Shown: piece after piece, positions 1 through 44,122 of the stretch | How positions within the stretch are numbered: position 1 is the first letter of the stretch | Layout: every line of letters starts with the position of its first letter | The notes under the pieces: model-generated | What the model was told of the DNA's origin: nothing | Databases searched by the model: none | The model's input: the letters and a program-made list of their open reading frames with translations, nothing else | Made by a program: the position numbers and the translations under genes | NCBI RefSeq assembly: GCF_056746865.1 | Contig: NZ_CM163382.1 | Length of the DNA stretch: 64,000 bases | Direction: 5' to 3' (one strand)

Positions 1-1243
1 ACGCGTCTATATCCGAAAAATACTCTTTAATTCCCTCTAGGATAGATTCTGCCACTTGTTGTTGGAATCTTGCCGTTTTCAGTTTGCGCTCTTCCTCAAC
101 GTTACTGATAAACGCCGTTTCGACCAGAATGGAGGGAATATCAGGTGCTTTCAGCACGGCAAACCCGGCCTGTTCAACCTGATTTTTATGCAGCTTGTTG
201 ATTTTACCGAGCTTATTCAGCACCGCTTTACCCAACTTCAGGCTGTCGGCAATGGTCAGCGACTGCACCATATCGAACATGGTGTGGTCGACATAGCGGT
301 CACCGCTTTTGCTCACGCCGCCAATCAAGTCCGAGGCGTTCTGGGTTTGTGCCAGATATTTTGCCGCAGTACTTGTCGCGCCTTTGGTCGAAAGCGCAAA
401 CACGGAAGAACCGCTCGGCTGGCGACTGGTAAAGGCATCAGCATGGATAGAAACAAAAAGGTCAGCACGTTGTTTCTGTGCTTTTGCTACACGCACTTGC
501 AACGGAATGAAGATGTCTTCATTGCGCGTCATGTACACCTTCATATTACCCTCTTTTTCGATCAGAGAGCGCAGACGGCGAGCTATTTGCAATACCACGT
601 CTTTTTCGCGTGTTTTGTATTTCCCCACCGCACCGGGGTCTTCGCCACCGTGGCCGGGGTCAAGCATAATGACAATCGGACGATCACGCCCTGCTTTACC
701 CGGTTGTGGACCACTTTGTGCTGGCGGCACCTGCTTTTCGAGGTCGCCTTTGTTGTAATCCTCCAGCAGCGCCAGCAGCGGGTCCTGCATATCCTGTGCA
801 TTGGCCGGATAGAGGTCCATCACCAGACGCTCTTTAAACCCGGCGACCGGCGCAAGGGCAAACAGCTGCGGTTTTACGTTTTGCTTTAATTCAAAAACCA
901 TGCGTACGGTTTGCGGGTCAAATTGCCCGACGCGCGCCGACTTGATGAACGGGTCGTCTGCACGAATTTGTGCCGCCATCCCCTTGAGTACCGAGTTCAG
1001 GTTTACATCTTCGATATCCACCACCACACGTTCAGGGTTACTTAACGCGAACTGCTTATATTGCAGCTGACGATTTGATTCTACCGTCACGCGGGTGTAG
1101 CTGGACGCAGGCCAGACGCGTACCGCCACGACCTGGCTGACCGCAGCCAGGCTGACCTGACTTACGCTCAATAGCCACATGGCGCCCGCACCTTGCAGTA
1201 AACGACGACGGCTGATTACATAATTATAGTTAGATACCAGCAT
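1..1243 (-). CDS. amiC: N-acetylmuramoyl-L-alanine amidase AmiC, partial (C-terminus beyond window start)
   Basis: Minus-strand frame open from ATG at 1241-1243 to position 1; N-terminus [33 protein letters not shown] has a Tat motif and matches AmiC from memory. Absent from the ORF track because it runs off the window edge. Confidence 0.75.
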
Positions 1244-1895
1244 ACCTTACCTAAGCAATACAATGTTCAATAATATAACTATGCTCTAATAAATTTTTAC
1301 AGGTGTTTAAAGAAATAATCACACGTATTCTTATCTTTGCAATCTAATCTAATTTTAAATAAAGGTCAATATCTTATTTTTTGATATAAGTTTTCTTAAA
1401 TACCACGATATAAAAACATTTTATTTAAGTGATTTCTTTTAGTTTGTTTTTCAAATAAAAGGGATGTACTCATGACATTTTAAATATGTACATCATGCAC
1501 AGCAATATTATAGTTTTTATCTGATTACTGAGAAGTATCTATCAATAGAACAATGTTTTTTAGTTTGTATAGGGAAGAGTTGGGTTGAATTGAGAATAAA
1601 AACTAGAGATTACTGGGGAAGGAACTTTTCAAATCCGAAATCATGGTCTACAATGAAAAAATGATGTTCTAAGTATTCCTATCATGAATAAGAATGCACC
1701 ATATTTTGAATAGTATAATTTTATATTTATATATCCTTTACTGTACGATGATGATATTTTATGCCTGAATGACAAGGGTGTTATTTTATACCACATATAA
1801 ATTTGCAGAAAATATAAAATGAGAAGCACTGAATAATCGCGGCTTCTGGCTATGATTTAAATGTTTTTACATTTTTTCAAAGTAAATTCAGTTCA

Positions 1896-3299
<1,404 letters not shown>

Positions 3300-3300
<1 letters not shown>

Positions 3301-3851
3301 CGCATGAAGGCGTTTCCGACATCCTCTCTGTTCATCGGCAGATAGCCTATTTCATCCAGGATCAACACCCGGGCATAACTCAGTTGCTGTAGCTGACGCT
3401 CCAGCCGGTTTTCCTGTTTCGCTTTCATCAGTGTCGCGATCAGTCTGTCCAGTGGCATAAACAGTACCCGATGTCCCGCATCCACCGCTTTCACGCCAAG
3501 AGCTATGGCCAGATGAGTTTTTCCGACACCAGGAGGTCCCAGCAGGATCACGTTTTCGCTGCGCTCCACGAACGCCAGACCAGCCAGTTCCCGGACAACC
3601 TTACGGTAGATGCCCGGCTGGAAGGTAAAGTCGAACTGCTCCAGCGTTTTGACCCACGGCAGACGAGCCTGCTTCAGCCTGGACTCCATACCGCGCTGAT
3701 GCCTGCCGTTCCATTCCTGCTGTAGCGCCATGCACAGGAACTCCCGGTAGTTCAGCTCTTTTTTAGCTGCCTGTTCCAGCAGGCTTTCAACGTGATAACT
3801 CAGATGCTCCATTTTCAGGCGACTCAGCAGGACTTCCAGCTCATGCATCAC
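3300..3851 (-). pseudogene. istB: IS21-family IstB helper ATPase, 3'-truncated by IS110-family insertion
   Basis: Walker [12 protein letters not shown] and LDEIGYLP present; C-terminal tail of ORF 3105-3851 is not IstB-like. Confidence 0.6.
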
Positions 3852-5020
3852 AACAGCTCCTCATAGGCACTCAGTAGTCGATGTTCCACCTGACTGACCT
3901 GCTGCCAGAGCGGGGTGTGATGCTCCGGCACTGTCTGCCAGCCAGACGATGCCGAACAGAGGCGATGTGAGGCCACCAGTTTCTCATTACTGTAGATCCG
4001 CAACTCGTCATCCAGCGATATTCGTATCGATACCGGCTGACCACACAGCGCTTCGGGAACGCTGTAACGATTACCACCAACCTCGATATAGCTGTCCCAG
4101 GACACATGGCGGATGTCAAAGTAACTGGTATCGAAGTCCGTATCCGGTAACGGCTGCAGATATTCCTGCTCCAGCGCGAAGCGCTGTTCCGGCGTTTCTT
4201 TGAACTGACGAAGCTCCCGTTTGTCAGCCACATCGGCTATCCATTGCTCCAGTTGTTGATTGACATGAGTGAAGCTGTCGAACCTGCGGTACCGGACGAA
4301 GAAGTTCTCCTTGAGGTATTTCACCATCCGCTCAACCTTACCTTTTGTTCTGGCCCTGCGTGGACGGCATGCCCGTGGCAGGAAGTTATAGTGGTCAGCC
4401 AGCAACAGAAATCCGGAGTTGAACACGACTTTCCCGTTGTTATTCTTCAGCACCGCAGCCTTCTGGTTATCAACCAGCACCGTTTTCACACAACCACCGA
4501 AGTAGCGGAAGGCGCGAACCAGTGATTCGTAGGTATTCTCAGCATCCTGTTTTGGGGCAGCGAAGACATGAAAGCGGCGGGAGAACCCCAGCGCATTAAC
4601 CGCAAAGTTAACTTTGCACCGTTGCCCGGCAACTTCCACCTCAACTTCGCCCCAGTCGTGCTGGAGCTGGTATCCAGGCTGAGTTTCGAAGCGAACTGTT
4701 CTTTTTGACGGACGCATTTTACGTTTGGGCTGGATGTAGTAACGCAGCATGGAACGTCCGCCCGTATAGCCCATTGCCTTAATCTCCGCGAAGATAACCG
4801 CGCTATTCCAGACATTCTCTGCCAGGCGCATGTCGATGTAATCCATAAACGGTTTCAGCTTAACCATTTTGTGGCGGGTCCTTCTGGCTGGCGGTTCAGG
4901 GTATTTGAGGTAGCGTCTGACCGTTCGTTCAGAGCAACCAATCTGAGTCACAATATCGACAATGTACGCGCCCTGCTGGCGCATTTGCTTTATCATGTAA
5001 AAGTCCTCTCTGCTCAGCAT
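3848..5020 (-). CDS. istA: IS21-family IstA transposase
   Basis: 390-aa ORF with N-terminal HTH and IstA-like core; overlaps istB start in the usual IS21 arrangement. Confidence 0.7.
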   Translation of the reverse strand: MLSREDFYMIKQMRQQGAYIVDIVTQIGCSERTVRRYLKYPEPPARRTRHKMVKLKPFMDYIDMRLAENVWNSAVIFAEIKAMGYTGGRSMLRYYIQPKRKMRPSKRTVRFETQPGYQLQHDWGEVEVEVAGQRCKVNFAVNALGFSRRFHVFAAPKQDAENTYESLVRAFRYFGGCVKTVLVDNQKAAVLKNNNGKVVFNSGFLLLADHYNFLPRACRPRRARTKGKVERMVKYLKENFFVRYRRFDSFTHVNQQLEQWIADVADKRELRQFKETPEQRFALEQEYLQPLPDTDFDTSYFDIRHVSWDSYIEVGGNRYSVPEALCGQPVSIRISLDDELRIYSNEKLVASHRLCSASSGWQTVPEHHTPLWQQVSQVEHRLLSAYEELL

Positions 5021-5067
5021 GTTGATGTCCTTTCTGGTGTGAGAACCTTAAGGAAACAACATGTTGG

Positions 5068-5406
5068 GTGGAGCGGACAATCCAAATGGTGAATTACCGT
5101 CTTATATCACTGGCGCTGACAGGCTTTAACGGCCTGTCCTCAAAAGTTCAGAACGTCCTGAAGGATGACCCGTTCTCCGGGCATATCTTCGTCTTCCGGG
5201 GCCGCAGTGGCAAAATGGTGAAAATACTGTGGGCCGATCGTGATGGGTTATGCCTGTTCGCCAAACGCCTGGAACGGGGCCGCTTCATCTGGCCGGTGAC
5301 CCGGGAAGGGAAAGTGCACCTGACGCCAGCTCAGTTATCCATGCTACTGGAGGGGATCGCGTGGCAACATCCCAAACGGACAGAACGGCCTGGCATCCGG
5401 ATATAA
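5068..5406 (+). CDS. IS66-family accessory protein TnpB (orf2); element 5'-truncated (no orf1)
   Basis: 112 aa; about 60% identical by eye to TnpB of the intact IS66-family copy at 19249-19599 (KILWADRDGLCLFAKRLE). Confidence 0.7.
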   Translation: MERTIQMVNYRLISLALTGFNGLSSKVQNVLKDDPFSGHIFVFRGRSGKMVKILWADRDGLCLFAKRLERGRFIWPVTREGKVHLTPAQLSMLLEGIAWQHPKRTERPGIRI

Positions 5407-5966
5407 CCCGTTGCAAAGCGAGTATATGGACACCTCACTTGCTCATGAGAATCCCCGCCTGCGGGCACTGTTGCAGACGCAACAGGACACCATCCGCCAG
5501 ATGGCTGAATACAACCGCCTGCTCTCACAGAGGGTGGCGGCTTATGCTTCTGAAATCAACCGGCTGAAGGCGCTGGTTGCGAAACTGCAACGTATGCATT
5601 TCGGTAAAAGCTCAGAAAAACTTCGCGCAAAAACCGAACGACAGATACAGGAAGCACAGGAGAGAATCAGCACACTTCAGGAAGAAATGGCGGAAACGCT
5701 GGGTGAGCAATATGACCCGGTACTGCCATCCGCCGCCCTGCGTCAGTCTTCAGCCTGTAAACAGTTACCGGCCTCACTTCCCCGTGAAACCCGGGTTATC
5801 CGGCCAGAAGAGGAATGCTGTCCTGCCTGTGGTGGTGAACTCAGTTCTCTGGGATGTGATGTGTCAGAGCAGCTGGAGCTTATCAGCTGCGCCTTTAAGG
5901 TTATCGAAACACAAGTCCGAAACTGGCCTGTTGTCGGTGTGACCATATCGTGCAGGCGCCGGCTCA

Positions 5967-7919
<1,953 letters not shown>

Positions 7920-9028
7920 GCTCATTCAAAACCCATTGCACACAGTTATGCCGGAGCGGGGCTTCTGGCCCATGTTGTCACCGGGAAGTATGCAGACCAT
8001 CTGCCGTTATACCGTCAGTCAGAAATATACCGCAGTCAGGACGTGGAGCTGACACCGTTGCTGAACTGCTGGAGCCGCTGTATGACGTCCTGCGCCAGTA
8101 TGTGCTGATGCCCGGTAAAGTCCATGCTGATGATATCCCCGTTCCGGTCCAGGAGCCAGGCAGTGGTAAAAACCGAACGGACAGGCTGTGGGTCTACGTC
8201 CGTGATGACCGTAATGCCGGGTCGGAGATGCCCCCGGCGGTCTGGTTCGCGTACAGTCAGGACCGGAAAGGTATCCATCCACAGAATCATCTGGCCGGTT
8301 ACAGCGGTGTGCTTCAGGCCGATACTTACGGTGGTTACCGGGCGTTATACGAATCCGGCAGAATAACGGAAGCCGCGTGTATGGCCCATGCCCGGAGGAA
8401 AATCCACGATTTGCATGCAAGAGCGCCAACTGACATCACCACGGAAGCCCTGCAGCGTATCGGTGAACTGTATGCCATCGAGGCAGAAGTCCGGGGATGT
8501 ACAGCAGAACAGCGTCTGGCGGCAAGAAAAGCCAGAGCTGCGCCACTGATGCAGTCACTGTATGACTGGATACAGACCCAGATGAAAACACTGTCGCGTC
8601 ACTCGGATACGGTAAAAGCGTTCGCCTACCTGCTGAAACAGTGAGATAGCCTGAACGTGTACTGCAGTAATGGCTGGGTGGAAATCGACAACAACATCGC
8701 AGAGAACGCCTTACGGGGAGTGGACGTAGGCCGGAAAAACTGGTTGTTCGCGGGTTCCGACAGCGGTGGCGAACATGCGGCGGTGTTGTACTCGCTGATC
8801 GGCACATGCCGTCTGAACAATGTTGAACCAGAAAAATGGCTGCGTTACGTCATTGAGCATATCCAGGACTGGCCGACAAACCGGGTACGCGATCTGTTGC
8901 CCTGGAAAGTTGATCTGAGCTCTCAGTAAATATCAATACGGTTCTGGCGAACCGCTTACTGTTCAATGGTCCATTGGGGTTTTGACATCAATTATCTCCG
9001 GTAAGTTAGTGAATGGATATCGGTAATG

Positions 9029-9383
9029 CTAACTGACTAAAAATCCCTGTGAAGATGACTTCCCCGTAACGACATAAACAAAGCGAACACCCGGACGAAA
9101 TACTATTTCACAAATTGTTAGGGCATCATTTATGAGCAGCGTTTTAATCGAGTAGTCTTTACTTGCATTGCTGCCTTTATTCTCAGGTGTTCTCATGTCC
9201 AAGATGCTCTGTGAGTTCAGCGCTAAGCTCATCTTTAACAGTACACTTCGTAAGCATGTATAAAAACAGGTTAAGATCAGATTCGGTTTTAAGGCAATTT
9301 ACCAGTTCGGCAGCAATAGCATTGGATTCTTGTTTATCAATTGCCTGTCTCCACGGTGTAGGGAACATATCAAAAACAGGCAA
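9029..9383 (-). pseudogene. Putative 5' remnant of the ibrA-like partner gene downstream of the ParB-like gene
   Basis: Two short overlapping minus-strand ORFs (9183-9383, 9029-9232) immediately downstream of the ibrB-like gene, ending against the IS66-family right end near 8960. Assignment is by position only. Confidence 0.25.
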
Positions 9384-9422
9384 TTACAAAATTTAAATTA
9401 CACTCTCGTCAGAACATAGCCC

Positions 9423-9917
9423 TTAACGAACCGTCCATGCAGGGCTGAAATCCTCTTCCTGAAACAGCTCTGTCAGCCCGCTAATCTGTTTCAGCCTCAG
9501 CACTTCATCCTGGTCCATGCCCAACTCTGTGCCAATACGCTCATCTGTCCAGCCCAGACGTGAGAGGTCCCTGACAATGTCAGACATTGACGTTACCTGG
9601 TGTTTTCCCCTGGCACGGTTATGCCGTATGGTTGCGGCAATACGTGATGCCTGTCCCTTTCTCTCTGGATTAATACAGGCCACTGGCAGCCAGCCCTTCA
9701 GACGTTTTCTCGTATCCGCTTTCCTGCCCAGCAACTGACGATGAAAACCATCCACGACCAGATAATGCTCCTTCTCTTCCGAAACCACCACAGGCTGCGT
9801 GAATCCATCCTGCTCCAGTGAATGTTTAAGCAGTTTTTTTTCACTGGAAGACATGACATTGGGATTGTAATCGTTGGCCACCACCTCATCCGCTTTCACC
9901 CACAACACACAATCCAC
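9423..9917 (-). CDS. ParB-like nuclease domain protein (IbrB-like)
   Basis: 164 aa with ParB N-terminal-domain motif VVDGFHRQ and a C-terminal HTH-like segment. Confidence 0.55.
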   Translation of the reverse strand: MDCVLWVKADEVVANDYNPNVMSSSEKKLLKHSLEQDGFTQPVVVSEEKEHYLVVDGFHRQLLGRKADTRKRLKGWLPVACINPERKGQASRIAATIRHNRARGKHQVTSMSDIVRDLSRLGWTDERIGTELGMDQDEVLRLKQISGLTELFQEEDFSPAWTVR

Positions 9918-10003
9918 AGGCTCCTGTGCAAAAGGGCTGACTGATCTTACCCAGCAATAGTGGACACAGGACTAAGTGAGTAAACTCTTAACCAGGGTGA
10001 CTC

Positions 10004-10303
10004 ATGACAAAACCAGTATCAATCAGCAAGAAGCCCCGTGAACAACATTCGCCTGAATTTCGTAACGAAGCCCTGAAACTCGCTGAACGCATCGGTGTGG
10101 CCGCCACAGCCCGTGAACTCAGCCTGTATGAATCTCAGCTTTATGCCTGGCGCAGTAAACAGCAGCAACAAATGAGTTCGTCAGAGCGCGAAAGCGAACT
10201 GGCCGCTGAAAATGTCCGCCTTAAACGACAACTGGCGGAGCAGGCTGAGGAACTGGCCATCCTCCAAAAGGCCGCGACATACTTCGCGAAGCGCCTGAAA
10301 TGA
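10004..10303 (+). CDS. IS3 OrfA
   Basis: 99 aa [32 protein letters not shown]..., recognised as IS3 OrfA. Confidence 0.85.
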
Positions 10304-13300
10304 AGTATGTCTTCATCGAAAATCATCGGGCAGAGTTCAGCATCAAAGCGATGTGTCGTGTACTTCGGGTTGCCCGCAGCGGCTGGTATGTCTGGCTCAG
10401 GCGTCGTCACCAGATGAGCCTGCGCCAACAGTTTCGGCTCACCTGCGATGCCGCTGTCCATAAGGCATTCTTTGAGGCAAAGCAGCGATACGGTGCTCCC
10501 CGCCTTGCTGACGAACTGCCGGAGTTCAATATTAAAACCATTGCCGCCAGCCTGCGTCGTCAGGGGCTGCGGGCGAAAGCCAGCCGGAAGTTCAGCCCGG
10601 CCAGCTACCGTGCACATGGCCTGCCCGTATTGGAGAATCTGCTGGAGCAGGACTTCAGCGCCAGCGGCCCGAACCAGAAGTGGGTGGGTGACATCACGTA
10701 CTGTGTGCCCGGAGTTCAGGGCGAGCATAGACGCTCAAATGAACCACGAGTCTGTCTGGAATATTGAACCGGTAACTCACGATGAGAAACCCAACAATCC
10801 CACCGGGTGTGACGGTGGAGAACCTGAGCGGCAGTGACCTGCGGCATGCCCGCAGGGTGATGTAACCCGCTGACAACGGGGATTGAGGCGAGATCACTAA
10901 GCCGAGATGATCCTCAAGGTTAAGTACTGAAAGGCTTAAGAATATGAACCCGTTAATCCGCCTCTGTGGGTTGAAAACGTCACCACGGCCTACGTGATCT
11001 GACAGGCCGTGCAGGAGGAACTGGCAGTGATACGTAAGCACTGCCGGTCGAAGGTGTTTTGACATGTATGCGAAACTCCGGGGCAGCAGCGTCTATCACG
11101 CTCGCGTTGCTGACTTCTGCCAACTTGCGGCAAGCAAGGATAAAGAGTGCGACGGGCAGCCTCCTCAGTATGTCTGAGTCCAGTCAGGCAAACCGGGGAA
11201 GGTCAGCGACGGATGTTAAGGGGGCATGGCTCCGATGACGCGCTGGCTGGCGGAGCTTCCGTAGTAGTCCGCGATGGGGAAAGCCCATTACATGGCGAAG
11301 GGAAGCAGTTTGAATGTGTCTGCGACGTAAATTAACTGACCTAACGAGGTGAAGACCTTTGATAATCAGCGAAATGCAACGCAAGCTTGCCACATGGGCA
11401 GCCACCGATCCGTCCCTACGGATTCAACGGCTGCTGCGTCTGATAACACAACCAGAATGGCTGGCTGAAGCGGCGCGGATCACGCTTTCATCAAAGGGGG
11501 CGAATACCCCCGGTGTTGATGGCGTGAACAAAACAATGCTACAGGCCAGACTGGCTGTTGAGCTGCAAATCCTCAGGGATGAATTACTCTCAGGCCACTA
11601 CCAGCCCTTGCCCGCCAGGCGGGTTTACATCCCTAAAAGCAATGGCAAACTGCGACCACTGGGTATCCCCGCGTTGCGGGATCGTATTGTTCAGCGGGCC
11701 ATGCTGATGGCGATGGAGCCGATATGGGAGAGTGATTTTCATACGCTCTCATATGGCTTCCGGCCTGAGCGCAGTGTCCACCACTCGATCCGCACGGTGA
11801 AATTACAGCTCACCGACTGCGGTGAAACCCGGGGACGCTGGGTGATTGAAGGCGACCTGTCCAGTTACTTCGACACCGTACATCATCGACTGCTGATGAA
11901 GGCTGTACGCCGCAGGATCAGTGACGCACGTTTCATGACTCTGCTGTGGAAAACCATCAAGGCGGGACATATCGATGTCGGTCTCTTTCGGGCGGCCAGT
12001 GAAGGTGTGCCACAGGGCGGTGTTATATCGCCGCTATTGTCGAACATCATGCTGAATGAGTTCGATCAATACCTGCATGAGCGCTACCTGAGCGGGAAAG
12101 CAAGAAAAGATCGGTGGTACTGGAATAACAGTATCCAACGGGGCCGAAGTACGGCGGTCAGAGAAAACTGGCAGTGGAAACCCGCGGTGGCGTACTGCCG
12201 CTATGCCGATGATTTTGTCCTCATCGTCAAAGGCACCAAAGCACAGGCGGAAGCCATCAGGGAGGAGTGTCGGGGTGTGCTCGAAGGCAGTCTGAAACTC
12301 AGGCTGAACATGGATAAGACTAAAATCACCCATGTTAATGACGGCTTTATCTTTCTGGGGCACAGGATCATTCGCAAACGCAGTCGTTATGGCGAGATGC
12401 AAGTGGTCTCAACGATCCCGCTGGAGAAAGCCAGAAACTTCGCCGCATCGCTGACAGCACTGTTATCAGGCAACTACAGTGAAAGCAAAGTCGATATGGC
12501 TGAACAACTCAACCGAAAACTGAAAGGCTGGGCCATGTTCTATCAGTTCGTTGATTTTAAGGCCAAAGTCTTCAGTTATATCGACCGTGTCGTGTTCTAG
12601 AAGCTGGCTCACTGGCTGGCCCGCAAATACCGTACAAGTATCGCTTCCCTGATGAGGTGGTGGTGTAAATCACCGAAACCGGGTCAGAGCAAAACGTGGG
12701 TTTTATTTGGTAAAACCAATCACGGCAAGCTCAGCGGCGAAATACTGTACCGGTTGGTGGGGCAAGGCAAGAAGCTGTTCCGCTGGCGGCTACCCGAAGG
12801 TAATCCCTATCTGAGGACGGAAACCAGAAAGACGTATACATCGCGCTTTACAGAAGTGGCAATGGCGTTCGCCAGCGTTTAAATGGAGAGCCGGATGCGC
12901 TGAAAGGTGCATGTCCGGTTCGGGGAGGAGAGGCAGGGAAATAGTCCGACTACGCCCTGCCTCTTACTCTACTGCGTACCGATGAGGGCTGGTTGTATCT
13001 CACAGTAGTCATCGACCTATGGTCACGCGCCGTCATTGGCTGGTCGATGTCACCGCGAATGACAGCACAACTGGCCTGTGATGCACGGCAAATGGCGTTG
13101 TGGCGGAGAAGACGCCCGGAAAGCGTCATTGCTCATACGGACCGTGGTGGTCAATACTGTTCAGGGGATTATCAGGCGCTGCTGAAGCGACACAACCTGC
13201 GTGGCAGTATGAGTGCGAAAGGCTACTGTTATGACAATGCCTGTGTGGAAAGCTTCTTTCATTCGCTGAAGGTGGAATGTATCCACGGGGAACGCTTTAG

Positions 13301-13424
13301 CAGCCGGGAAATAATGCGGGCAACGGTGTTTAATTATATCGAGTGTGATTACAATCGCTGGCGTCGTCACAGTGCCTGTGGCGGTCTCAGCCCGGAACAA
13401 TTTGAAAACCATAATCTCGCTTAG
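10300..13424 (+). CDS. IS3 OrfB interrupted by group II intron (exon 1 10300-10702, exon 2 12973-13424)
   Basis: Exon 1 ends ...GDITY plus T; exon 2 starts TGCGTACCGATGAG; the ligated junction TAC-TTG-CGT reads YLR and restores the IS3 OrfB frame. Confidence 0.75.
11359..12600 (+). CDS. Group II intron-encoded reverse transcriptase/maturase
   Basis: 413 aa with RT motifs including YADD ([11 protein letters not shown]) and a C-terminal maturase-like region; probably no endonuclease domain given its length. Confidence 0.85.
   Translation: MIISEMQRKLATWAATDPSLRIQRLLRLITQPEWLAEAARITLSSKGANTPGVDGVNKTMLQARLAVELQILRDELLSGHYQPLPARRVYIPKSNGKLRPLGIPALRDRIVQRAMLMAMEPIWESDFHTLSYGFRPERSVHHSIRTVKLQLTDCGETRGRWVIEGDLSSYFDTVHHRLLMKAVRRRISDARFMTLLWKTIKAGHIDVGLFRAASEGVPQGGVISPLLSNIMLNEFDQYLHERYLSGKARKDRWYWNNSIQRGRSTAVRENWQWKPAVAYCRYADDFVLIVKGTKAQAEAIREECRGVLEGSLKLRLNMDKTKITHVNDGFIFLGHRIIRKRSRYGEMQVVSTIPLEKARNFAASLTALLSGNYSESKVDMAEQLNRKLKGWAMFYQFVDFKAKVFSYIDRVVF
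12888..12921 (+). ncRNA. Group II intron domain V
   Basis: GAGCCGGATGCGCTGAAAGGTGCATGTCCGGTTC: AGC triad, GAAA-type loop and complementary arms. Confidence 0.7.
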
Positions 13425-13454
13425 GGCCGTGTCCACATTACGTGGGTAGGATCA

Positions 13455-14280
<826 letters not shown>

Positions 14281-14289
14281 TCAGTCTGT

Positions 14290-14467
14290 AATGCGCTGTG
14301 TGAAAAAGCTCACTGACAGTCTGAGTATTTGTCTGCAAAGGATGGAAGCCCGTCGAGGGTTCCTGAAAACCACTGGTGCGCTGGCGAATAAGCTGACAAG
14401 AATCATCTGGCGTGTTTTGAGCGATAGTATTGATTTTAATATGCAGAAGGCCGTTGTGATGAATTAA
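14290..14467 (+). pseudogene. IS110-family transposase C-terminal fragment
   Basis: ...GALANKLTRIIWRVL... is the characteristic C-terminal motif of IS110-family transposases; no N-terminal part. Confidence 0.4.
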
Positions 14468-14889
14468 AGAAAAACAGTAAGTTATAGAAAATATTTTTAA
14501 CTGAGTTTACATTCACTGATGAGATAACGGCTACCGCCCCTGTAACAGTCTGAAGTTGACCTGGGTAATCAAATACCGGTGTAGTGATTAGGAAATAGGG
14601 CCCGGATAACATCATGGCGCAGGTCATTGAACCTACTAACGACGCCGGATATATGGTCGCAAACCGCATCGAACCAGTACTTGCCTCATCTGGGACGTCC
14701 ATATATGCTCAACAAAAGAGAGCGTTCAGAATTCTAGCCTCACATCATACCTGAAACCGCGTCCCGACCATAGATGATTTTATCGCCGGTTTTTTATGAC
14801 AATTGTTATATTTCCGTAACAATCTTTCCGTAGACTCACGTGCATAAAAATGATTCCCCTTGAAATCGATTTTTTGAAAGGAAACCGCA

Positions 14890-35753: not shown

Positions 35754-37733
35754 ATGAACTTACAAGACAAAGAACAAAGCGCCAAACTCTCCAGTGCTAT
35801 TTGGCGTATGGCAGATGATTTATGGGGTGATTTCAAACACACCGATTTTGCGCGGATTATCCTGCCATTTTTGCTACTGCGTCGTATTGAATGCGTGTTA
35901 GAACCCACCCGTGAGGAAGTTCGTAAGTTCTATCTGGCCGAAAAACAATCCGGCATAGACCTTGGTTTAGTGTTGCCAGAAATTGCGGGATTCGCCTTTT
36001 ACAACACCAGTGAATATAGCCTAGAAACCTTAGGCGCGTCAGACACCGGCGACAACCTAGAACACTACATCAGCCAGTTCAGCAAAAACGTTCGTACCAT
36101 CTTTGATGAGTTTAAATTTGGTCAAACCATAGAAGATCTGGAAAAAGCCAAGTTGCTGTATCGCATGGTAAACCATTTTGCCAACCTCGACTTGCATCCT
36201 GATGTAGTGTCTGACCGCGTATTATCAGATGCTTATGAAGAGCTGATTCTAAAGTTCGCCAGTTCGGTTAATGAAAAGGCCGGGGAATTTATGACCCCGC
36301 GTGATGCCGTGCGTCTTGCCACCAAACTGGTGCTGGCGGCGGATGAAGATATCTTTAGTGAAAAGGGTGTGATCCGCACCATCTATGACCCAACCTGTGG
36401 CACGGGCGGTTTCCTTTCCGATGCCATTAGCCAAATTGAAGAAATGGGCAGCAGCGCTAAAGTCGTGCCTTTTGGTCAAGAGCTCGACCCCGCGACCCAT
36501 GCCATGGCGCTGACCAATATGATGATCCGCGGTTTTGATGCCAATAACATCAAGCAAGGCAACACCTTATCAGACGATCAGTTACGTGCCGACAAGTTTC
36601 ACTACGGCCTTGCCAACCCGCCATTTGGCATTAAGTGGGAAAAAGCCAAGAAAGAAGTAGAACGTGAGCACAAACAGCTCAAATACGCCGGACGCTTTGG
36701 GCCAGGCCTGCCGAGTATTTCTGATGGTTCAATGCTGTTTTTACTGCACTTGGTATCAAAAATGGAAACGCCGGAAAATGGTGGTGGCCGAGTGGGTATA
36801 GTCCTTTCTGGCTCGCCACTGTTTAATGGCGATGCAGGCTCAGGCCCATCAGAAATCCGCCGTTGGCTGCTAGAACAAGACTTAGTCGAAGCGATTGTTG
36901 CCCTGCCAACCGATATGTTCTTCAACACCGGCATTGGCACCTACATCTGGATTTTGACTAACCATAAAGAGCCAAGACGCAAGAATCAGGTGCAACTGAT
37001 TAACTTGGCAGATATTTGGACTCCCATGCGTAAATCGCAAGGCGATAAGCGCAAGTACCTGAGTGATGAACAGATTGACGATATTGTCCGTGCGTACGAT
37101 GGCTTTGAAGCCAGTGACAACTGTAAGATCTTCCAGACTACTGATTTTGCCTACCGTAAAGTCACCATTCAGCGTCCACTGCGTGCCAAACTAGATATTA
37201 CCGCTGCGGGCATTGCTGCATTTGTGCAGCAAGATACGTTTAAAAAACTCAAACCAGAGCAACAAGCGGCATGGGTACAATACCTCACCGATAACCTTGG
37301 CCTTCAGCCTTATGAATGGGCACGTTTGGCGGTTAAGAAGAATAACAATAAGGGTGACTTTGGTAAGTGCTCAAAAGCACTGGCTACGGCCTTAACTGCG
37401 CACTTTGTAAAAATTGATCCGCAATTTGAGCCTGCACTGGATGAAAAAGGCCAAGTGATCGCCGACCCTAAACTCAAAGACACCGAAAGCATTCCTTTTG
37501 ACCGCGACGTTGAAGATTACTTCGCACAAGAGGTGCTGCCACATGTACCGGATGCCTTTATTGATCACTCAGTGCGTGATGAAAAAGACGGCGAAGTGGG
37601 CATTGTCGGTTATGAAATTAACTTTAACCGCTATTTCTACCAATACGTGCCACCACGCGAGTTGAGTGTGATTGATCGTGAGCTAAAAGCATGTGAAGCG
37701 CGCATTCAGGCTCTGCTGAATGAGGTGGCGTAA
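35754..37733 (+). CDS. hsdM: Type I restriction-modification methyltransferase subunit HsdM
   Basis: 659 aa; SAM-binding TCGTGGFL-type motif and catalytic NPPFG. Confidence 0.85.
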   Translation: MNLQDKEQSAKLSSAIWRMADDLWGDFKHTDFARIILPFLLLRRIECVLEPTREEVRKFYLAEKQSGIDLGLVLPEIAGFAFYNTSEYSLETLGASDTGDNLEHYISQFSKNVRTIFDEFKFGQTIEDLEKAKLLYRMVNHFANLDLHPDVVSDRVLSDAYEELILKFASSVNEKAGEFMTPRDAVRLATKLVLAADEDIFSEKGVIRTIYDPTCGTGGFLSDAISQIEEMGSSAKVVPFGQELDPATHAMALTNMMIRGFDANNIKQGNTLSDDQLRADKFHYGLANPPFGIKWEKAKKEVEREHKQLKYAGRFGPGLPSISDGSMLFLLHLVSKMETPENGGGRVGIVLSGSPLFNGDAGSGPSEIRRWLLEQDLVEAIVALPTDMFFNTGIGTYIWILTNHKEPRRKNQVQLINLADIWTPMRKSQGDKRKYLSDEQIDDIVRAYDGFEASDNCKIFQTTDFAYRKVTIQRPLRAKLDITAAGIAAFVQQDTFKKLKPEQQAAWVQYLTDNLGLQPYEWARLAVKKNNNKGDFGKCSKALATALTAHFVKIDPQFEPALDEKGQVIADPKLKDTESIPFDRDVEDYFAQEVLPHVPDAFIDHSVRDEKDGEVGIVGYEINFNRYFYQYVPPRELSVIDRELKACEARIQALLNEVA

Positions 37734-39019
37734 TGAATGCTGGCAACATAGTAGATGCTTTCGTATCTGACTCGAAATGGAACTCAGTACCAGCTAAACG
37801 TTTATTTACGAGTAGCAAAGAAATCAATCAAGGAATGAAAGAATCTAATCGTCTTGCACTAACAATGAAAGGTGTCATAAACCGCTCGTTAGACGATTTA
37901 CAAGGACTTCAATCTTCTGATTACTCTGTTTATCAGATTTTTGAAAAAGATGACTTAGTTTTTAAGCTCATAGATCTTGAAAATATAAAGACTAGCCGAG
38001 TGGGGATTGTGCATGAACGAGGAATAATGAGCCCTGCATACATCCGTGTTTCAGCGAGTTCAAATAGCATCTACCCAAGGTTCTATTACTGGTACTTTTT
38101 TGCTCTATACCTAACCAATATTTATAACAAACTGGGTGGAGGAGTTCGTCAGAACCTAACAGCTGGTGATCTTTTAGAAATACCTGTTCCACTGATTGAT
38201 ATTTCATTACAGAAGCAGGTTAGCACATTCCTTGATCGCGAAACCCAGCGCATCGACAGTCTGATCGAGGAAAAGCAGACCTTTATTAAGCTGCTCAAAG
38301 AAAAACGCCAAGCACTGATCAGCCATGTGGTCACAAAGGGGCTCTATCCCAATGTGGAGATGCAGGACTCTGGCATCGAGTGGATTGGGCAAGTGCCGAA
38401 GCATTGGGAAGTCAAAAAGATAAAGCATATTTGCTCCAACTTTATGTATGGAACCTCTCAAGACTGTAACCAGTCTGATGTTGGCTATCCTGTTCTCAGG
38501 ATACCAAACATCAAGAGTACCAATGTTGATTTTGAAGATCTCAAATATGCAAATATCAGTGATGTTGATGCTTTAACTTATCTTTTATCAAGAGGCGACA
38601 TTTTAGTCATCAGAACTAACGGTAACCCTAATCTGGTCGGCCAAAGCGCGCTTTTTGATTCAAATGGGCAGTATTTATTTGCGTCGTACCTAATAAAGTT
38701 AACACCAAAGCAAGGAGTGGATACTAGCTTCTTAGTGGAAGCGATGAACTCACTATCTGTTCGTCAAGCATTAACATTTCAGTCAAGAACATCGGTAGGT
38801 AACTACAACCTGAGCATTCCTTCACTAGCTAATACAAGTATTGCTATCCCACCAATTGATGAGCAAAAGACAATAACGAATTACTTGAGTGCAGCAACGA
38901 TAAACATTGATTTACTGATTCAAGAGACTGATAAATCGATTGATCTTCTAAAAGAACACCGCACATCGCTGATCAACGCGGCTGTCACAGGAAAAATAGA
39001 CGTCAGGGAGGCGGTGTAA
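37733..39019 (+). CDS. hsdS: Type I R-M specificity subunit HsdS
   Basis: 428 aa with two variable AT-rich target-recognition regions separated by a conserved coiled-coil segment; overlaps hsdM stop and hsdR start. Confidence 0.8.
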   Translation: MNAGNIVDAFVSDSKWNSVPAKRLFTSSKEINQGMKESNRLALTMKGVINRSLDDLQGLQSSDYSVYQIFEKDDLVFKLIDLENIKTSRVGIVHERGIMSPAYIRVSASSNSIYPRFYYWYFFALYLTNIYNKLGGGVRQNLTAGDLLEIPVPLIDISLQKQVSTFLDRETQRIDSLIEEKQTFIKLLKEKRQALISHVVTKGLYPNVEMQDSGIEWIGQVPKHWEVKKIKHICSNFMYGTSQDCNQSDVGYPVLRIPNIKSTNVDFEDLKYANISDVDALTYLLSRGDILVIRTNGNPNLVGQSALFDSNGQYLFASYLIKLTPKQGVDTSFLVEAMNSLSVRQALTFQSRTSVGNYNLSIPSLANTSIAIPPIDEQKTITNYLSAATINIDLLIQETDKSIDLLKEHRTSLINAAVTGKIDVREAV

Positions 39020-42000
39020 TGGCTGCACATCATGAAGTGCATTTTGAACAATATATTACCGAGCAGTTGGTGAACAATGGCTGGAAAGAAGGCCATTCCT
39101 GCCACTATGACCAGCAACGCGCCCTTTACCCGCAAGATGTCATGGATTGGGTAAAGGCCACCCAGCCAGATGCCTGGCACAAACTGAATAAACTGCATGG
39201 TGTGAATGCCGAGCAGGTGCTGTTGGAGCGTTTGGAAAAAGCCCTCTCTTCCCACAAAGCTGGCAGTAAAACAGGTGGCACCATTAATGTGCTGCGTAAA
39301 GGCTTTACCATTGCAGGTTGCGGCACGATTGCCATGGGCCAACGCAAACCCGAAGATGCGCGCAATGAAGAGCGTATAGCCCGTTATGAGCACAACATTT
39401 TGCGCGTGGTGCGCCAACTGAAATATTGCCCGACTCGCGAGTGGGAAATTGACTTGGTGTTCTTTATCAACGGTCTACCCGTTGCCACCGCCGAGCTAAA
39501 AACCGATTTTACCCAGTCGCTAGAATCGGCGATTGCGCAGTACAAAGAGGATCGTCTGCCCGTTGACCCAAAAACCAAGCGTAAAGAGCCGCTGTTAACC
39601 TTTAAACGCGGTGCAGTGGTACATTTTGCCATGTCTGATACAGAAATCGCCATGGCGACCAAACTGGCGGGAGAAAATACCTATTTTCTGCCCTTCAATA
39701 AAGGCCATGATGGTTCTACCTCTGATTTGCCCGTACACATCAACTTGCCGGGTGAAGATGGAGAGTATCCGGTCAGCTATTTTTGGCAAGAAATTGCCCA
39801 AAAAGATAATTGGCTACGCATTTTCTACAGCTTTGTGTATGTCGAAACCAAAGAGGTTGCCGATAGCAATGGCAAGGTTGAGCGTAAGGAAACACAGATT
39901 TTTCCGCGTTATCATCAGTTAGCCGCAGTCAACAAGATGATTGATGATGCCCGCCAGAACGGCGCAGGCATGCAGTATCTTTGTGAGCACAGCGCCGGTT
40001 CGGGAAAAACCTCTACCATAGCCTGGACGGCCCATGATTTGATTCGTTTACGCAGCACCGATGGTAAAGCGGTCTTTAAATCAGTGATCATTGTGACCGA
40101 CCGCACCGTGCTGGATTCGCAGTTGCAAGATGCGGTGCAACAGCTGGATCATCAATATGGGGTGATTAAGGTGATTGATCGCGAAAAGAGCAGCGAGTCG
40201 AAATCAAAACAGCTGACTGAAGCGCTATTGACTGGCACGCCGATCATTGTAGTGACGATTCAAACCTTCCCATATGCGTTAGAAGCGATTCTGACCAATC
40301 AATCTTTGGCACAAAGTAACTTTGCGGTGATCATCGATGAAGCACACACCTCGCAAACAGGCTCTACAGCCAAAGGGTTACGCGCAGCGCTTACTCTAAA
40401 CCTTAGCCCTCAAGAGTTGGAGCAAATGAGCATTGAGGACATTCTTACTAAGGTGCAAGAAGCGCGCGCCATGCCCAAGAACGTTTCGCACTTTGCTTTT
40501 ACGGCAACACCCAAGCACAGCACCAAGATGTTGTTTGGCCGCCCGAAAGACCCTAACCAACCAGTGTCAGATGACAATCTTCCTGAATCGTTCCACCTCT
40601 ACACCCAACGTCAGGCCATTGATGAGGGTTTTATTCTTGATGTGCTGGAGAATTACACCCACTACGATACAGCCTACAAAATTGGTGAGAACAATCTGGA
40701 TGAGAAGCGCGTAGACAGCAAACAAGCTCGCCGCGCGTTGGCGCGCTGGATGTCACTGCACCCAACCACGGTCAGCCAAAAAGTCGAATTTATTATTAAG
40801 CACTTCAAGGCCAATATCGCTCACCTACTGGAAGGTGAAGCCAAAGCCATGGTGGTCACATCGGGCAGGCCACAGGCGGTGAAATACAAGCTTGCTTTTG
40901 ATAAATACATTAAAAAGCATGGTATTGAAGGTATCCAAGCCTTGGTTGCCTTCTCGGGCAAAGTCCCCGGCAAAGATTTGGGTGATGAAGACAGCCAAGA
41001 CCCGCTAGAAATTGATTTCGATAAAGAGTACACCGAGTACAACTTAAACCCAGACACGCACGGGGCTGACCTGCGCCATGAGTTTGAGAAAACCGAATAT
41101 CGCGTCATGTTAGTCGCCAACAAGTTCCAAACGGGCTTTAATCAACCAAAACTGGTTGCCATGTATTTGGATAAGAAAATATCCGATGTAGAAGCGGTGC
41201 AAACGCTGTCTCGCCTAAACCGCACCTATCCAGGCAAAGACACAACCTTCGTGATTGATTTTGTTAACGATCCACAAACCATTCTCAATGCGTTCAAAAA
41301 GTACGACAAAGGCGCGCAGCTTAATGAAGTGCAAGATGTGAACGTCATCTATGACATCAAAGATATTTTGGATGAACAGAACATATACAACCATCAAGAT
41401 TTAGAGTTGTTTAAGCAAGCGCGTGGTAAATCGATTCTCGGCCAATCACCTGACAAAAAGTCACACGCGCACAAGAAACTGCTAGCTGCCACACAACGCC
41501 CTACCGATGTGTTCAACGTTAAGCTCAAAGAGCTGGTTGATGCTGCAAACCATTGGGATCAGCAATACAACAAAGCGCACCTTGCGGGTGATGAAAAAGC
41601 GGCGAACTACGCAGAATCTCAGCGCAGTGATTTCACCAAGCAGCGCGAAGCACTAATGCGTTTTAAGTCAGATTTAGCTCGATTTGTGAAGCACTATAGC
41701 TATATGAACCGCCCCGGGTTTCCTGGAGAGTGTTTTATCTGTGAACTCAGGCTGCCAGATCATCGTTTCCGATGGAAGCATAATAAGCTTTTTCTGCTTC
41801 TGCCGGAGGAGTATGGCCCAGCCTTCCCAGCAATCGTCGATTGTTATACCAGTCCACCCACGTTAGTGTGGCCAGTTCCACTTCTGCACGGTTTTTCCAG
41901 CTCTTACGGTGTATTACCTCCGCTTTGTAAAGACCATTGATGCTCTCAGCCATCGCGTTGTCATACGAGTCGCCTGTACTCCCTGTTGATGCCAGTAATC

Positions 42001-43568
42001 CGGCTTCTTTTAGTCGCTCCGTATAGGCCAGTGACACATACTGAGAGCCTTTATCGCTGTGATGGATGGTGCCAGACGGACGACGGGCCCACAACGCCTG
42101 CTCCAGCGCATCCAGCACGAATGTCGTTTCCATAGACGATGAGACCCGCCACCCCACGATGTATCCGGCAAACACATCAATGATAAACGCCACATAGACG
42201 AAGCCCTGCCATGTGCTGACGTAAGTAAAATCAGCCACCCACAGCTGGTCAGGTCGTTCTGCCACGAACTGACGGTTTACGCGGTCGCCTGCGGCAACGG
42301 CTTTCCGGCTGATGGTCGTACGGACCTTTTTACCCCGGAGAACACCGGCAAGTCCCATAACCGCCATGAGACGTGCCACTGTACATCTGGCCACCCTGAT
42401 TCCTTCCCGTAACAACTGACGCCAGACTTTACGCACACCGTACACCTGATGATTTTCATCGTATACGCGCTGTATCTCTCTCTTCAGCCAGTCGTCGTGC
42501 TGCGCACGGGCACTGCGTTTATCCGGATGATGTCGCTGTTGCTGACAATGGTAATACGTTGACGGGGCAATATGCAGTTCGCTGCATACCGGTCCGACCC
42601 CGTACTGCTCACGCAGCTTATCCAGCAGTGGCATCATTTTTTCCAGAGGCGGTCGAACTCCGCCTTCGCAAAATAAGCGGAAGCCTGGCGAAGGATATCG
42701 TTACTGCGGCGCAGTTCACGATTTTCACGTTCCAGCTCTTTCAGACGCTGACGTTCAGCGCTGGTGAGCCCACCATCACCGCCCCCGGTATCCCGCTCAT
42801 GCTGGCGAACCCAGACACGCAGAGTCTCCGGCGTACAGCCAATCTTTGGGGCAATGGAACAAATTGCCGCCCACTGTGAGTCATATTCATCCTGACTTTC
42901 CAGAACCATACGAATCGCCCGCTGACGGACTTCGGGGGAAAAACGAGTATTTTTAGTCATCCTGTTTACCTCTTTCTCAGGGAGTTTAGTCTCCAGGATT
43001 TCCGGGGCGGTTCAATATGGCGCAATTGATTGAGTTTGGTGATCCTGAACTGGAAAACTTTGCCGCGTTTGCTCATTTGCTATCACGTCGATTGAAAGGG
43101 GTAACACCAGAAAACATCGATCTCAGTGCACTGGTACTAGAAAAATTCAAAATCAAATACGACAAAGAGCCGCTTCCAGAAGCGTTTAATCAGGTACTTG
43201 AACCTATCCGCCCCAACTATAACGACCCTGCGGATCGTGAACAGGCATTTCTTGCCGATATCATTCGCCGCCTAAACGAACTGTTTGGCGATGTCGGCGA
43301 CGAACCCGGTCGCCGAAACTTTGCCAACGGTACTATTACGCGTGTCACCCAAAATCCAATTGTGGTTGAGCAGATAGAAAAGCACGACAAGTCGATTGCC
43401 CTCAAAGGCGACTTGCCGCAAGCGGTGAAGCAAGCCGTTGTGCAGGCTCTGCTGAAAGAAGGTGATATAGCCCGAACGCTACTCAAAGACCCACAAGTTA
43501 TGGCAAGTTATGTTGAGTTGATTTTTGACATGATGAAGCAAGGTGCAGAACAGGCGGCGGTGAAATAA
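39019..43568 (+). pseudogene. hsdR: Type I restriction enzyme R subunit HsdR, split by IS629 (insert 41705-43014)
   Basis: Helicase motifs (SAGSGKTS, DEAH-box-like IIDEAH); the frame is continuous across the insertion once IS629 and one ATA duplication are removed. Confidence 0.8.
41705..43014 (-). mobile_element. IS629, copy 1 (1310 bp), 3-bp target duplication ATA
   Basis: Ends TGAACCGCCCCGGGTTTCC... and ...GGTTCA; OrfA 42634-42960 and OrfB 41747-42637 match IS629 from memory. Confidence 0.9.
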
Positions 43569-44122
43569 TGAATACTGCGTTTCGGGTTTTACTTACGTTC
43601 AATGCAACATCACTACTAGTGATTATCTTTGCGGTACAAAAAGGGTACTCACTCGGATATTTCTTTGGTGGTTTCGCTTGCTTCGATTGGATAGCAGCAC
43701 TTCCGAACGCAGTATCATATTTACTCTATTTTCTTATCCCTGTTTTATCGACTGGATTGAGTATTTGGCTGAGTAAGTATTTGGGTAAAGACGATTTTAA
43801 GGCGGGTGAAGTAGCGAGTATTGAGCATGCCAATAACAGCTTCCTACCAAGTTATTTGGGTTACTTTTTCGTGGCGTTGAGCATTGGTAACTGGGAGACA
43901 TTGTGGTTTGTTTATGGCGTTTTGTTTGTTTTTACTCTCTTATCGCAAGCACTCTACTTTAACCCATTGTTTTTACTGTTTGGTTATGAGTTTTATAACA
44001 TTACAACCAAAAACGGAACGGCCATTTTCCTTATTAGCCGAGAGCGCTACAAGAAGCCAGATGACATCGAAATATCATTGGCTTATCGAATCAATAATTA
44101 CACATTTATCGAGCGAGGATAA
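43568..44122 (+). CDS. Hypothetical integral membrane protein (about 4 TM), first gene of candidate defence cassette
   Basis: 184 aa; hydrophobic segments near residues 5-23, 29-66 and 92-150; start overlaps hsdR stop (TAATG); AT-rich. Confidence 0.6.
   Translation: MNTAFRVLLTFNATSLLVIIFAVQKGYSLGYFFGGFACFDWIAALPNAVSYLLYFLIPVLSTGLSIWLSKYLGKDDFKAGEVASIEHANNSFLPSYLGYFFVALSIGNWETLWFVYGVLFVFTLLSQALYFNPLFLLFGYEFYNITTKNGTAIFLISRERYKKPDDIEISLAYRINNYTFIERG

Follow-up and report, generated by a model that had tools for sequence, protein, structure and literature searches.

A 5′-truncated ibrB remnant abutting an IS3-family element in Escherichia coli

The sequence at 9423–9941 (minus strand) of the 64-kb stretch of DNA analyzed here (the window) is, very probably, a functionless remnant of ibrB (the second of the two genes in the ibrA–ibrB operon), left behind by a deletion flush with an insertion sequence (IS). 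As judged from its alignments, it is a fragment of a member of the IbrB-like family and not an intact member. It holds codons 43–214 and the TAA stop, with 100% identity to residues 43–214 of WP_000502867.1. Since codons 1–42, the coupled start, ibrA, and the promoter are all missing, the remnant is a pseudogene and would be incapable of the eib co-activation reported for the pair. With partner, promoter, and native start gone from the window, the locus would do nothing. The sequence-only reading of this DNA had recognized an IbrB-type, ParB-like gene between IS66 and IS3 elements and had supposed that the function of the pair was lost. These points stand: the family is right, the repeats of the two flanking elements end at 8960 and begin at 9942, and ibrA, the promoter, and the native ibrB start are deleted. 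The same reading took the ParB-like gene to be intact and its partner to be decayed in place downstream, and in both it was mistaken.

The ibrB remnant and the elements around it

In the list of open reading frames, the gene appears as an ORF of 164 aa with a GTG start (minus strand, 9423..9917). This ORF is the portion of the remnant after an internal GTG (Val51), and it matches residues 51–214 of the 214 residues of the IbrB-like protein with 100% identity. With intact IbrB as the query against the window (tblastn), the match covers residues 43–214 at 9941..9426, again with 100% identity. On the 5′ side of codon 43, the ibrB frame stays open for 10 further codons, within the IS3 repeat, before a stop closes it; between that stop and the GTG at 9917, there is no start codon in the ibrB frame. 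In Enterobacteriaceae, IbrB has 212–214 aa and the full-length homologues cover 100% of the query, whereas here residues 1–42 are absent, and with them the start codon and the Shine–Dalgarno sequence.

The full-length IbrB protein matches phrog_2159 with an E-value of 1.4e-87. The Pfam profile search proposed for the 164-aa protein gives ParB_N as the best match, below threshold (E 4.6e-4, 20.6 bits vs. a gathering cut-off of 26.3); the downstream fragments, proposed for the same search, give no match. The region of the ParB N-terminal (ParB/Srx) domain, residues 57–111, is kept in the remnant. In strain XDL, which is identical to the window over 930–14123, RefSeq annotates the same sequence as a pseudogene ("IbrB-like ... 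incomplete; missing N-terminus"). The remnant is thus already known as a pseudogene, and it is an ordinary one.

Along the plus strand, the order is a first IS66-family element, the stump of a second IS66-family element, an IS256-family stump, a 15-nt spacer, ibrB codons 214–43, and an IS3-family element. The first IS66-family element is represented by its 3′ part (7926..8960, plus strand), with a tnpC pseudogene and the right terminal inverted repeat, as delimited from the ORFs, the sequence, and the RefSeq annotation of XDL. The tnpC stop is at 8927–8929 and the inverted repeat ends with ...GAACCGCTTAC at 8960; the tnpC of XDL (6997–8000 of locus L001) corresponds to 7926–8929 of the window. 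Further left, this element is split by an IS100/IS21 insertion.

The IS3-family element occupies 9942..13454 (plus strand), as established from its repeats, from an uninterrupted copy in strain EC476, and from Rfam. Its left repeat, TGATCTTACCCAGCAATAGTGGACAC, begins at 9942 and its right repeat, ...GGGTAGGATCA, ends at 13454, both read directly from the sequence. It carries the terminal repeats starting with TGA (TGATCTTACCC... at 9942), orfA (10004–10303), and orfB that are typical of the family. A group II intron of 2,270 bp (10703–12972) carrying ltrA splits orfB, and the insertion of the intron is delimited by the EC476 copy, which is uninterrupted. Rfam RF00029 matches at 12886–12972 (64 bits), and the group II intron is the only match in the Rfam scan of 8000–14000.

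Loss of ibrA and of the 5′ end of ibrB

The same DNA in strain ECCNB12-2 (locus L002) runs into a complete ibrB of 214 aa (WP_000502867.1), upstream of which lies the gene for IbrA, a "phosphoadenosine phosphosulfate reductase" of 408 aa (PAPS_reduct, E 1.2e-17; DUF3440, E 5.1e-34). The pair, known as the "IbrAB genetic island" of E. coli ECOR-9, corresponds in RefSeq to WP_000017086.1 and WP_000502867.1. The gene order ibrA to ibrB, with overlapping ends, is found in ECCNB12-2, UTI89, O157:H7, Escherichia phage PhiR5_2 (where the pair is annotated "IbrA/IbrB co-activator of prophage gene expression"), and Lactobacillus phage CR28 (with a homologue at 45% identity). In every intact locus examined, ibrA is upstream of ibrB, never downstream, with an overlap of 16–26 nt. 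In ECCNB12-2 the overlap is 16 nt, and the ibrB ATG and its Shine–Dalgarno sequence, AAGGAGGAAGGA, sit within the 3′-terminal 16 nt of ibrA, which couples the two genes in translation. On the 3′ side, the neighbor of ibrB is a PerC-family gene in O157:H7 and there is nothing on the same strand in UTI89; between the present ibrAB allele and other E. coli loci, homology ends at the ibrB stop codon. The comparison with intact loci, which had been proposed as a check, therefore confirms the IbrB family but shows 42 codons missing and places ibrA upstream. In the window, no ibrA overlaps the start of ibrB; the IS3 repeat adjoins codon 43.

The homology of ibrB to intact ibrAB loci ends at 9941, and the IS3-family left inverted repeat starts at 9942. 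At this junction GGGCTGAC is followed immediately by TGATCTTACCC. The boundary of the left repeat is common to three independent contexts. In two of them, ECCNB12-2 and EC476, the left flanks are unrelated, so that 9942 is a true IS terminus. The window is collinear with the ECCNB12-2 locus at 8581–9941, with one mismatch, and collinearity resumes over 9940–14123. Between the two collinear blocks, the 3,031 bp at 9013–12043 of the ECCNB12-2 locus are missing from the window. They contain ibrB codons 1–42, the entire ibrA, the AT-rich upstream and promoter region, and older IS fragments; the ribosome-binding site and the start codon of ibrB belong to the same lost stretch. The partner has thus been deleted outright and not decayed in place: tblastn with IbrA against the whole 64 kb finds no match (best E 0.62). 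A search for IbrB residues 1–42 anywhere in the window (tblastn) is equally negative.

A simple insertion of the IS3-family element, with the other half of ibrB and ibrA lying beyond it, is excluded by these absences and by the right flank of the element, which equals that of the intact-locus strain ECCNB12-2. The shared right flank argues instead for a deletion that ends exactly at an IS already resident. The deletion of 3,031 bp would be IS-mediated, ending at the left inverted repeat of the resident IS3-family element. Over 4.2 kb, the window and ECCNB12-2 present seven differences, of which three (9954, 10040, and 10049) lie within 108 bp of the left end of the IS and are followed by about 3 kb with zero differences. 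This cluster at the left end of the IS favors recombination between two copies over one-ended transposition. We infer that ibrB may have received a second IS copy, which later recombined with the resident one; the polymorphisms suggest that the present left end derives from that second copy, formerly in ibrB. No intermediate of either route, two-copy recombination or intramolecular transposition, was found. The direct repeats around the IS3-family element (TAC vs. CTC in the ancestor) are uninformative.

Insertion-sequence debris downstream from ibrB

Downstream from ibrB, two short ORFs on the same strand, 9183–9383 and 9029–9232, overlap and can be merged across a frameshift into a peptide of 118 aa. 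The sequence-only reading took them for fragments of ibrA, and the presence of two short overlapping same-strand ORFs 3′ of ibrB is all that could recommend an intact ibrB followed by an ibrA decayed into 9029–9383. The reading had itself named a lack of similarity to IbrA as the result that would overturn it, and this is what is seen: BLASTP yields no alignment of the merged peptide with IbrA even at E ≤ 100, and neither PAPS_reduct (PF01507) nor DUF3440 (PF11922) matches the fragments at E ≤ 10. Scans of the two ORFs and of the merged peptide with Pfam, NCBIfam, and PADLOC give nothing meaningful.

The fragments match instead the N-terminus of the ISEc39 transposase (BLASTP, 51% over 75 aa, E 7e-20) and the terminal repeat of that element. 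With sensitive blastn, 9190–9407 is 74% identical over 223 nt to ISEc39 of CFT073, including the IS end, the segment from the transposase start to the IS end being covered; tblastx gives an E-value of 1.7e-17. The merged peptide contains the IS256-type motif "HLGHE...GSN...Y..KT", and the family is then confirmed by blastn, tblastx, and BLASTP. By these similarities, 9075–9407 is IS256-family debris and 8961–9074 is IS66-family debris, and neither is IbrA. With ibrA upstream in the intact loci and ibrB itself deprived of 42 codons, the idea of an intact ibrB with a decayed downstream ibrA is refuted, and we consider its chance of being right negligible.

The IS256-family remnant (9075..9407, minus strand) consists of the terminal repeat region and the first ~90 transposase codons of an element related to ISEc39. 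Its terminal repeat region (74% nt identity) and its transposase N-terminus (51% identity) resemble those of ISEc39; unlike ISEc39, the window holds only a frameshifted 5′ stump of ~330 bp from a diverged relative. The position of the ISEc39 start Met is an Ile, the frame is shifted, and the remnant is truncated by the second IS66-family element. The DDE (mutator-type) catalytic domain is absent from 9075–9407, where, with ~90 N-terminal codons left, there is no match to Pfam Transposase_mut. RefSeq describes 9125–9368 as a "hypothetical protein, frameshifted, missing C-terminus." The stump matches 465 genomes, mostly at IS256/ISEc39 transposase genes, but no near-identical intact copy of the element was found in E. 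coli. Among 5.8 billion proteins, only two partial E. coli ORFs match the merged peptide; one of them is on a contig of 1.4 kb that agrees with the window letter for letter as far as 9156 and breaks off there, and is uninformative on the boundaries.

The second IS66-family element is present as its left end (8961..9074, minus strand), with the terminal repeat, the leader, and the first ~9 tnpA codons (tnpA ATG at the complement of 8986–8988). In strain CUVET18-1530, an IS66-family element shares 110 of 119 nt (92%) with 8956–9074 at its tnpA-proximal end. The homology to this element stops at the same nucleotide, 9074, in two different contexts, and the stump is cut off by the first IS66-family element. 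The IS256-family end and the ibrB stop are separated by 15 nt (9408..9422), and a three-way alignment shows no homology of this spacer to the UTI89 sequence 3′ of ibrB. The older events were an insertion of the IS256-family element right behind the ibrB stop codon, an insertion of an IS66-family element into that element, and a truncation of both earlier insertions by another IS66-family element.

Relatives of IbrAB, residual function, and populations

ParB, Noc, and KorB are CTP-dependent DNA-binding proteins of the ParB/Srx superfamily. The IbrB family profile matches ParB, Noc, and Spo0J in the PDB (~1e-7), and ParB_N is matched by 35 of the 61 family members at E ≤ 1e-3. An AlphaFold2 model of IbrB on an alignment of 61 sequences (from a representative search) reaches a pLDDT of 91.8; a model on a shallow alignment of 11 sequences (pLDDT 44) was discarded. 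With the modeled full-length protein, Foldseek returns ParB, Noc, and KorB with E-values of 1e-6 to 1e-5 over 146–179 aligned columns, and the match comprises their N-terminal NTP-binding domain and helix–turn–helix domain. There are differences. IbrB is only 13%–20% identical to these proteins, it lacks the C-terminal dimerization domain, and it has a family-specific N-terminal extension of two helices. The GERR arginine box of ParB, Noc, and KorB is DGFHR in IbrB, nearer to the DGQHR/sulfiredoxin type. The partner of IbrB is a PP-loop enzyme and not ParA. On the basis of the modeled ParB/Noc/KorB-like domain and helix–turn–helix, IbrB is most likely the DNA-binding component of the pair, and IbrA would supply an ATP-dependent PP-loop activity.

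The combination of a ParB/Srx-type protein with a PAPS-reductase-like PP-loop ATPase follows the same domain logic as in DndB/DndC (DNA phosphorothioation) and in BREX type 4 with BrxP. At the level of models, the likeness is weak. The intact IbrA gives only partial PP-loop matches, to BrxP (PADLOC, 2.4e-7, 27 bits) and to DndC (9e-4; TIGR03183 at 13.5 bits vs. a cut-off of 290), and IbrB matches no PADLOC model. The partners DndA, DndD, and DndE are not found at ibrAB, where the neighbors are PerC-like genes or nothing. In the literature searched, we did not find DNA modification by IbrAB, or anything specific to IbrAB on a role of PAPS-reductase/ParB pairs in defense or DNA modification. [quoted passage not shown] 2002, the only functional report traced.

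Could the truncated ibrB still work as an orphan, started at the GTG at 9917, expressed by read-through or from an IS-derived transcript, and acting without a partner as a DNA-binding regulator of the ParB/KorB type? The remnant keeps the ParB-like core (Pfam match, residues 57–111), the DGFHR motif, and the helix–turn–helix region. Some phage homologues are naturally short, with ~160–175 aa beginning at the equivalent of residue ~48, and the 164-aa ORF has nearly the same extent; an example is the 173-aa protein of Lactobacillus phage CR28, which matches IbrB 48–211. An AGGAG occurs 3 nt upstream of the GTG. From these features, residual expression of a folded orphan protein is conceivable. 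However, a Shine–Dalgarno spacing of 3 nt is poor, there is no sigma-70-like promoter upstream of the remnant on the minus strand, and transcription of the IS3 element runs the other way, away from the remnant. Besides, ibrA, the companion in all intact loci examined, is absent. The lost helices (7–21 and 26–43) are modeled within the fold with confidence (pLDDT ~97), and they carry Asn34, which is kept by 43 of 51 diverse homologues having that region, a set mainly of full-length proteins; Asn34, Leu40, and His41 are conserved among homologues of 35%–51% identity. The frame is open and identical across 22 genomes, but this identity is as compatible with recent clonal descent as with selection; by the same token, no decay signal (additional frameshifts or stops) proves relaxed selection. 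Altogether, a working orphan is improbable, and we attach little weight to a residual function of the remnant. If the 164-aa orphan were active without IbrA, the DNA-binding role of IbrB would be separable from the enzymatic role of IbrA.

Among 5,426 complete E. coli genomes, a megablast search with 8930–9990 finds the stretch in 54, where the gene is annotated "IbrB-like domain-containing protein"; these 54 complete genomes make up the allele group of the remnant, with the same downstream IS256 scar. The exact ibrB/IS3 junction (104 nt) is present in 22 of the 5,426, all 100% identical, from chickens and poultry, humans, and kites in several countries, and RefSeq mostly marks ibrB in the 22 as a pseudogene missing its N-terminus. 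The intact ancestor of the window locus persists in 34 complete genomes, where ibrAB is accompanied by that IS256 scar. Of the 20 chromosomes listed with the junction, 11 have a single megablast match to the region and hence no second ibrB detectable by megablast. Given the extreme abundance of IS elements in the region, and with any single complete genome collinear with the window only in part, a chimera assembled at a repeated IS might be suspected; the identical junction of 104 nt in 22 independently finished genomes refutes this, and an artefact deserves hardly any credence.

The locus itself is minor: another gene lost in a genomic island saturated with IS elements. The coupled order ibrA to ibrB is kept all the way from E. 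coli to phages of Lactobacillus; wherever a "ParB-like" ORF stands alone beside an IS, 5′ truncation should therefore be checked. The role of the ibrAB pair, a ParB/KorB-like protein with a PP-loop enzyme, is a matter for the family and not for the window; the pair occurs (at ≥80% coverage) in 2,028 of the 5,426 complete E. coli genomes (~37%). For the role of IbrAB, the 22 genomes with the deleted form and the 34 with the intact form, in the same background, offer a natural comparison set.

Insertion sequences bordering the ibrB remnant

To the left of the ibrB remnant (9423-9941, minus strand), nested insertion sequences occupy 3848-8960, and nearly all the genes there are pseudogenes. The IS66-family element whose 3′ part ends at 8960 is split by an IS100/IS21-like element (with istB at 6033-6815 and a frameshifted istA running to 7833) and is truncated on its left by a second IS21-family istA (3848-5020).

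To the right, the IS3-family element at 9942-13454 contains, within its orfB and in sense orientation, a group II intron of 2,270 bp (10703-12972), with an RT/maturase ORF at 11359-12600 and domains V-VI at 12886-12972 (Rfam RF00029). Strain EC476 has a copy of this IS without the intron, and comparison with it sets the insertion point. In relatives, ltrA is flagged by RefSeq for an internal stop. Compared with ECCNB12-2, a strain with complete ibrA-ibrB, SNPs are present at 9954, 10040, and 10049, all within the first 108 bp of the element, and the following ~3 kb are identical. Because the three differences are clustered and then followed by ~3 kb without any, the alignment suggests that the left end of the element came from another IS copy, via IS–IS recombination or gene conversion.

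Rearrangement of the island beyond position 14123

Collinearity with E. coli strain XDL, which has the same ibrB/IS3 junction, is limited to 930-14123. From 14124 on (e.g., 13521-18745 and 21274-41706), the orientation relative to that junction is reversed in the complete genomes of EC332, CM2, and XDL, so IS-mediated inversions and rearrangements have occurred in the island. CM2 lacks a 2.5-kb insertion that the window carries at 18746-21273. An IS1203-like IS3-family element is present in the window in three copies, each of ~1.3 kb. Alignment to CM2 shows that the one at 41705-43014, in the region ~39020-43700, disrupts the type I restriction R-subunit gene (hsdM lies at ~35755-37734 and hsdS at ~37734-39020). 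A RhuM-family gene is disrupted by the copy at 45361-46673, and the third lies at 50679-51987.

PerC-family genes and the XDL neighborhood

Collinearity with CM2 also points to a small cluster at ~22433-23319 that encodes a ProQ/FinO-family protein, a transcriptional regulator of the PerC family, and an SSB. In O157:H7, a PerC-family gene lies directly 3′ of ibrB (3649-3918 of locus L009) and, in STEC, is co-regulated with ibrB (PMC7649339). The two may form a recurring association.

Outside the window, the chromosomal neighborhood of the ibrB/IS3 junction in XDL (NZ_CP043033.1, 939194-986000) contains sitABCD, iucABCD/iutA, a YadA-like adhesin (possibly Eib-like) accompanied by a sigma-like HTH gene, and all of a dndBCDE-dptFGH phosphorothioation system. 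XDL thus has a bona fide DndB/DndC pair in the same genome as a destroyed IbrA/IbrB pair.
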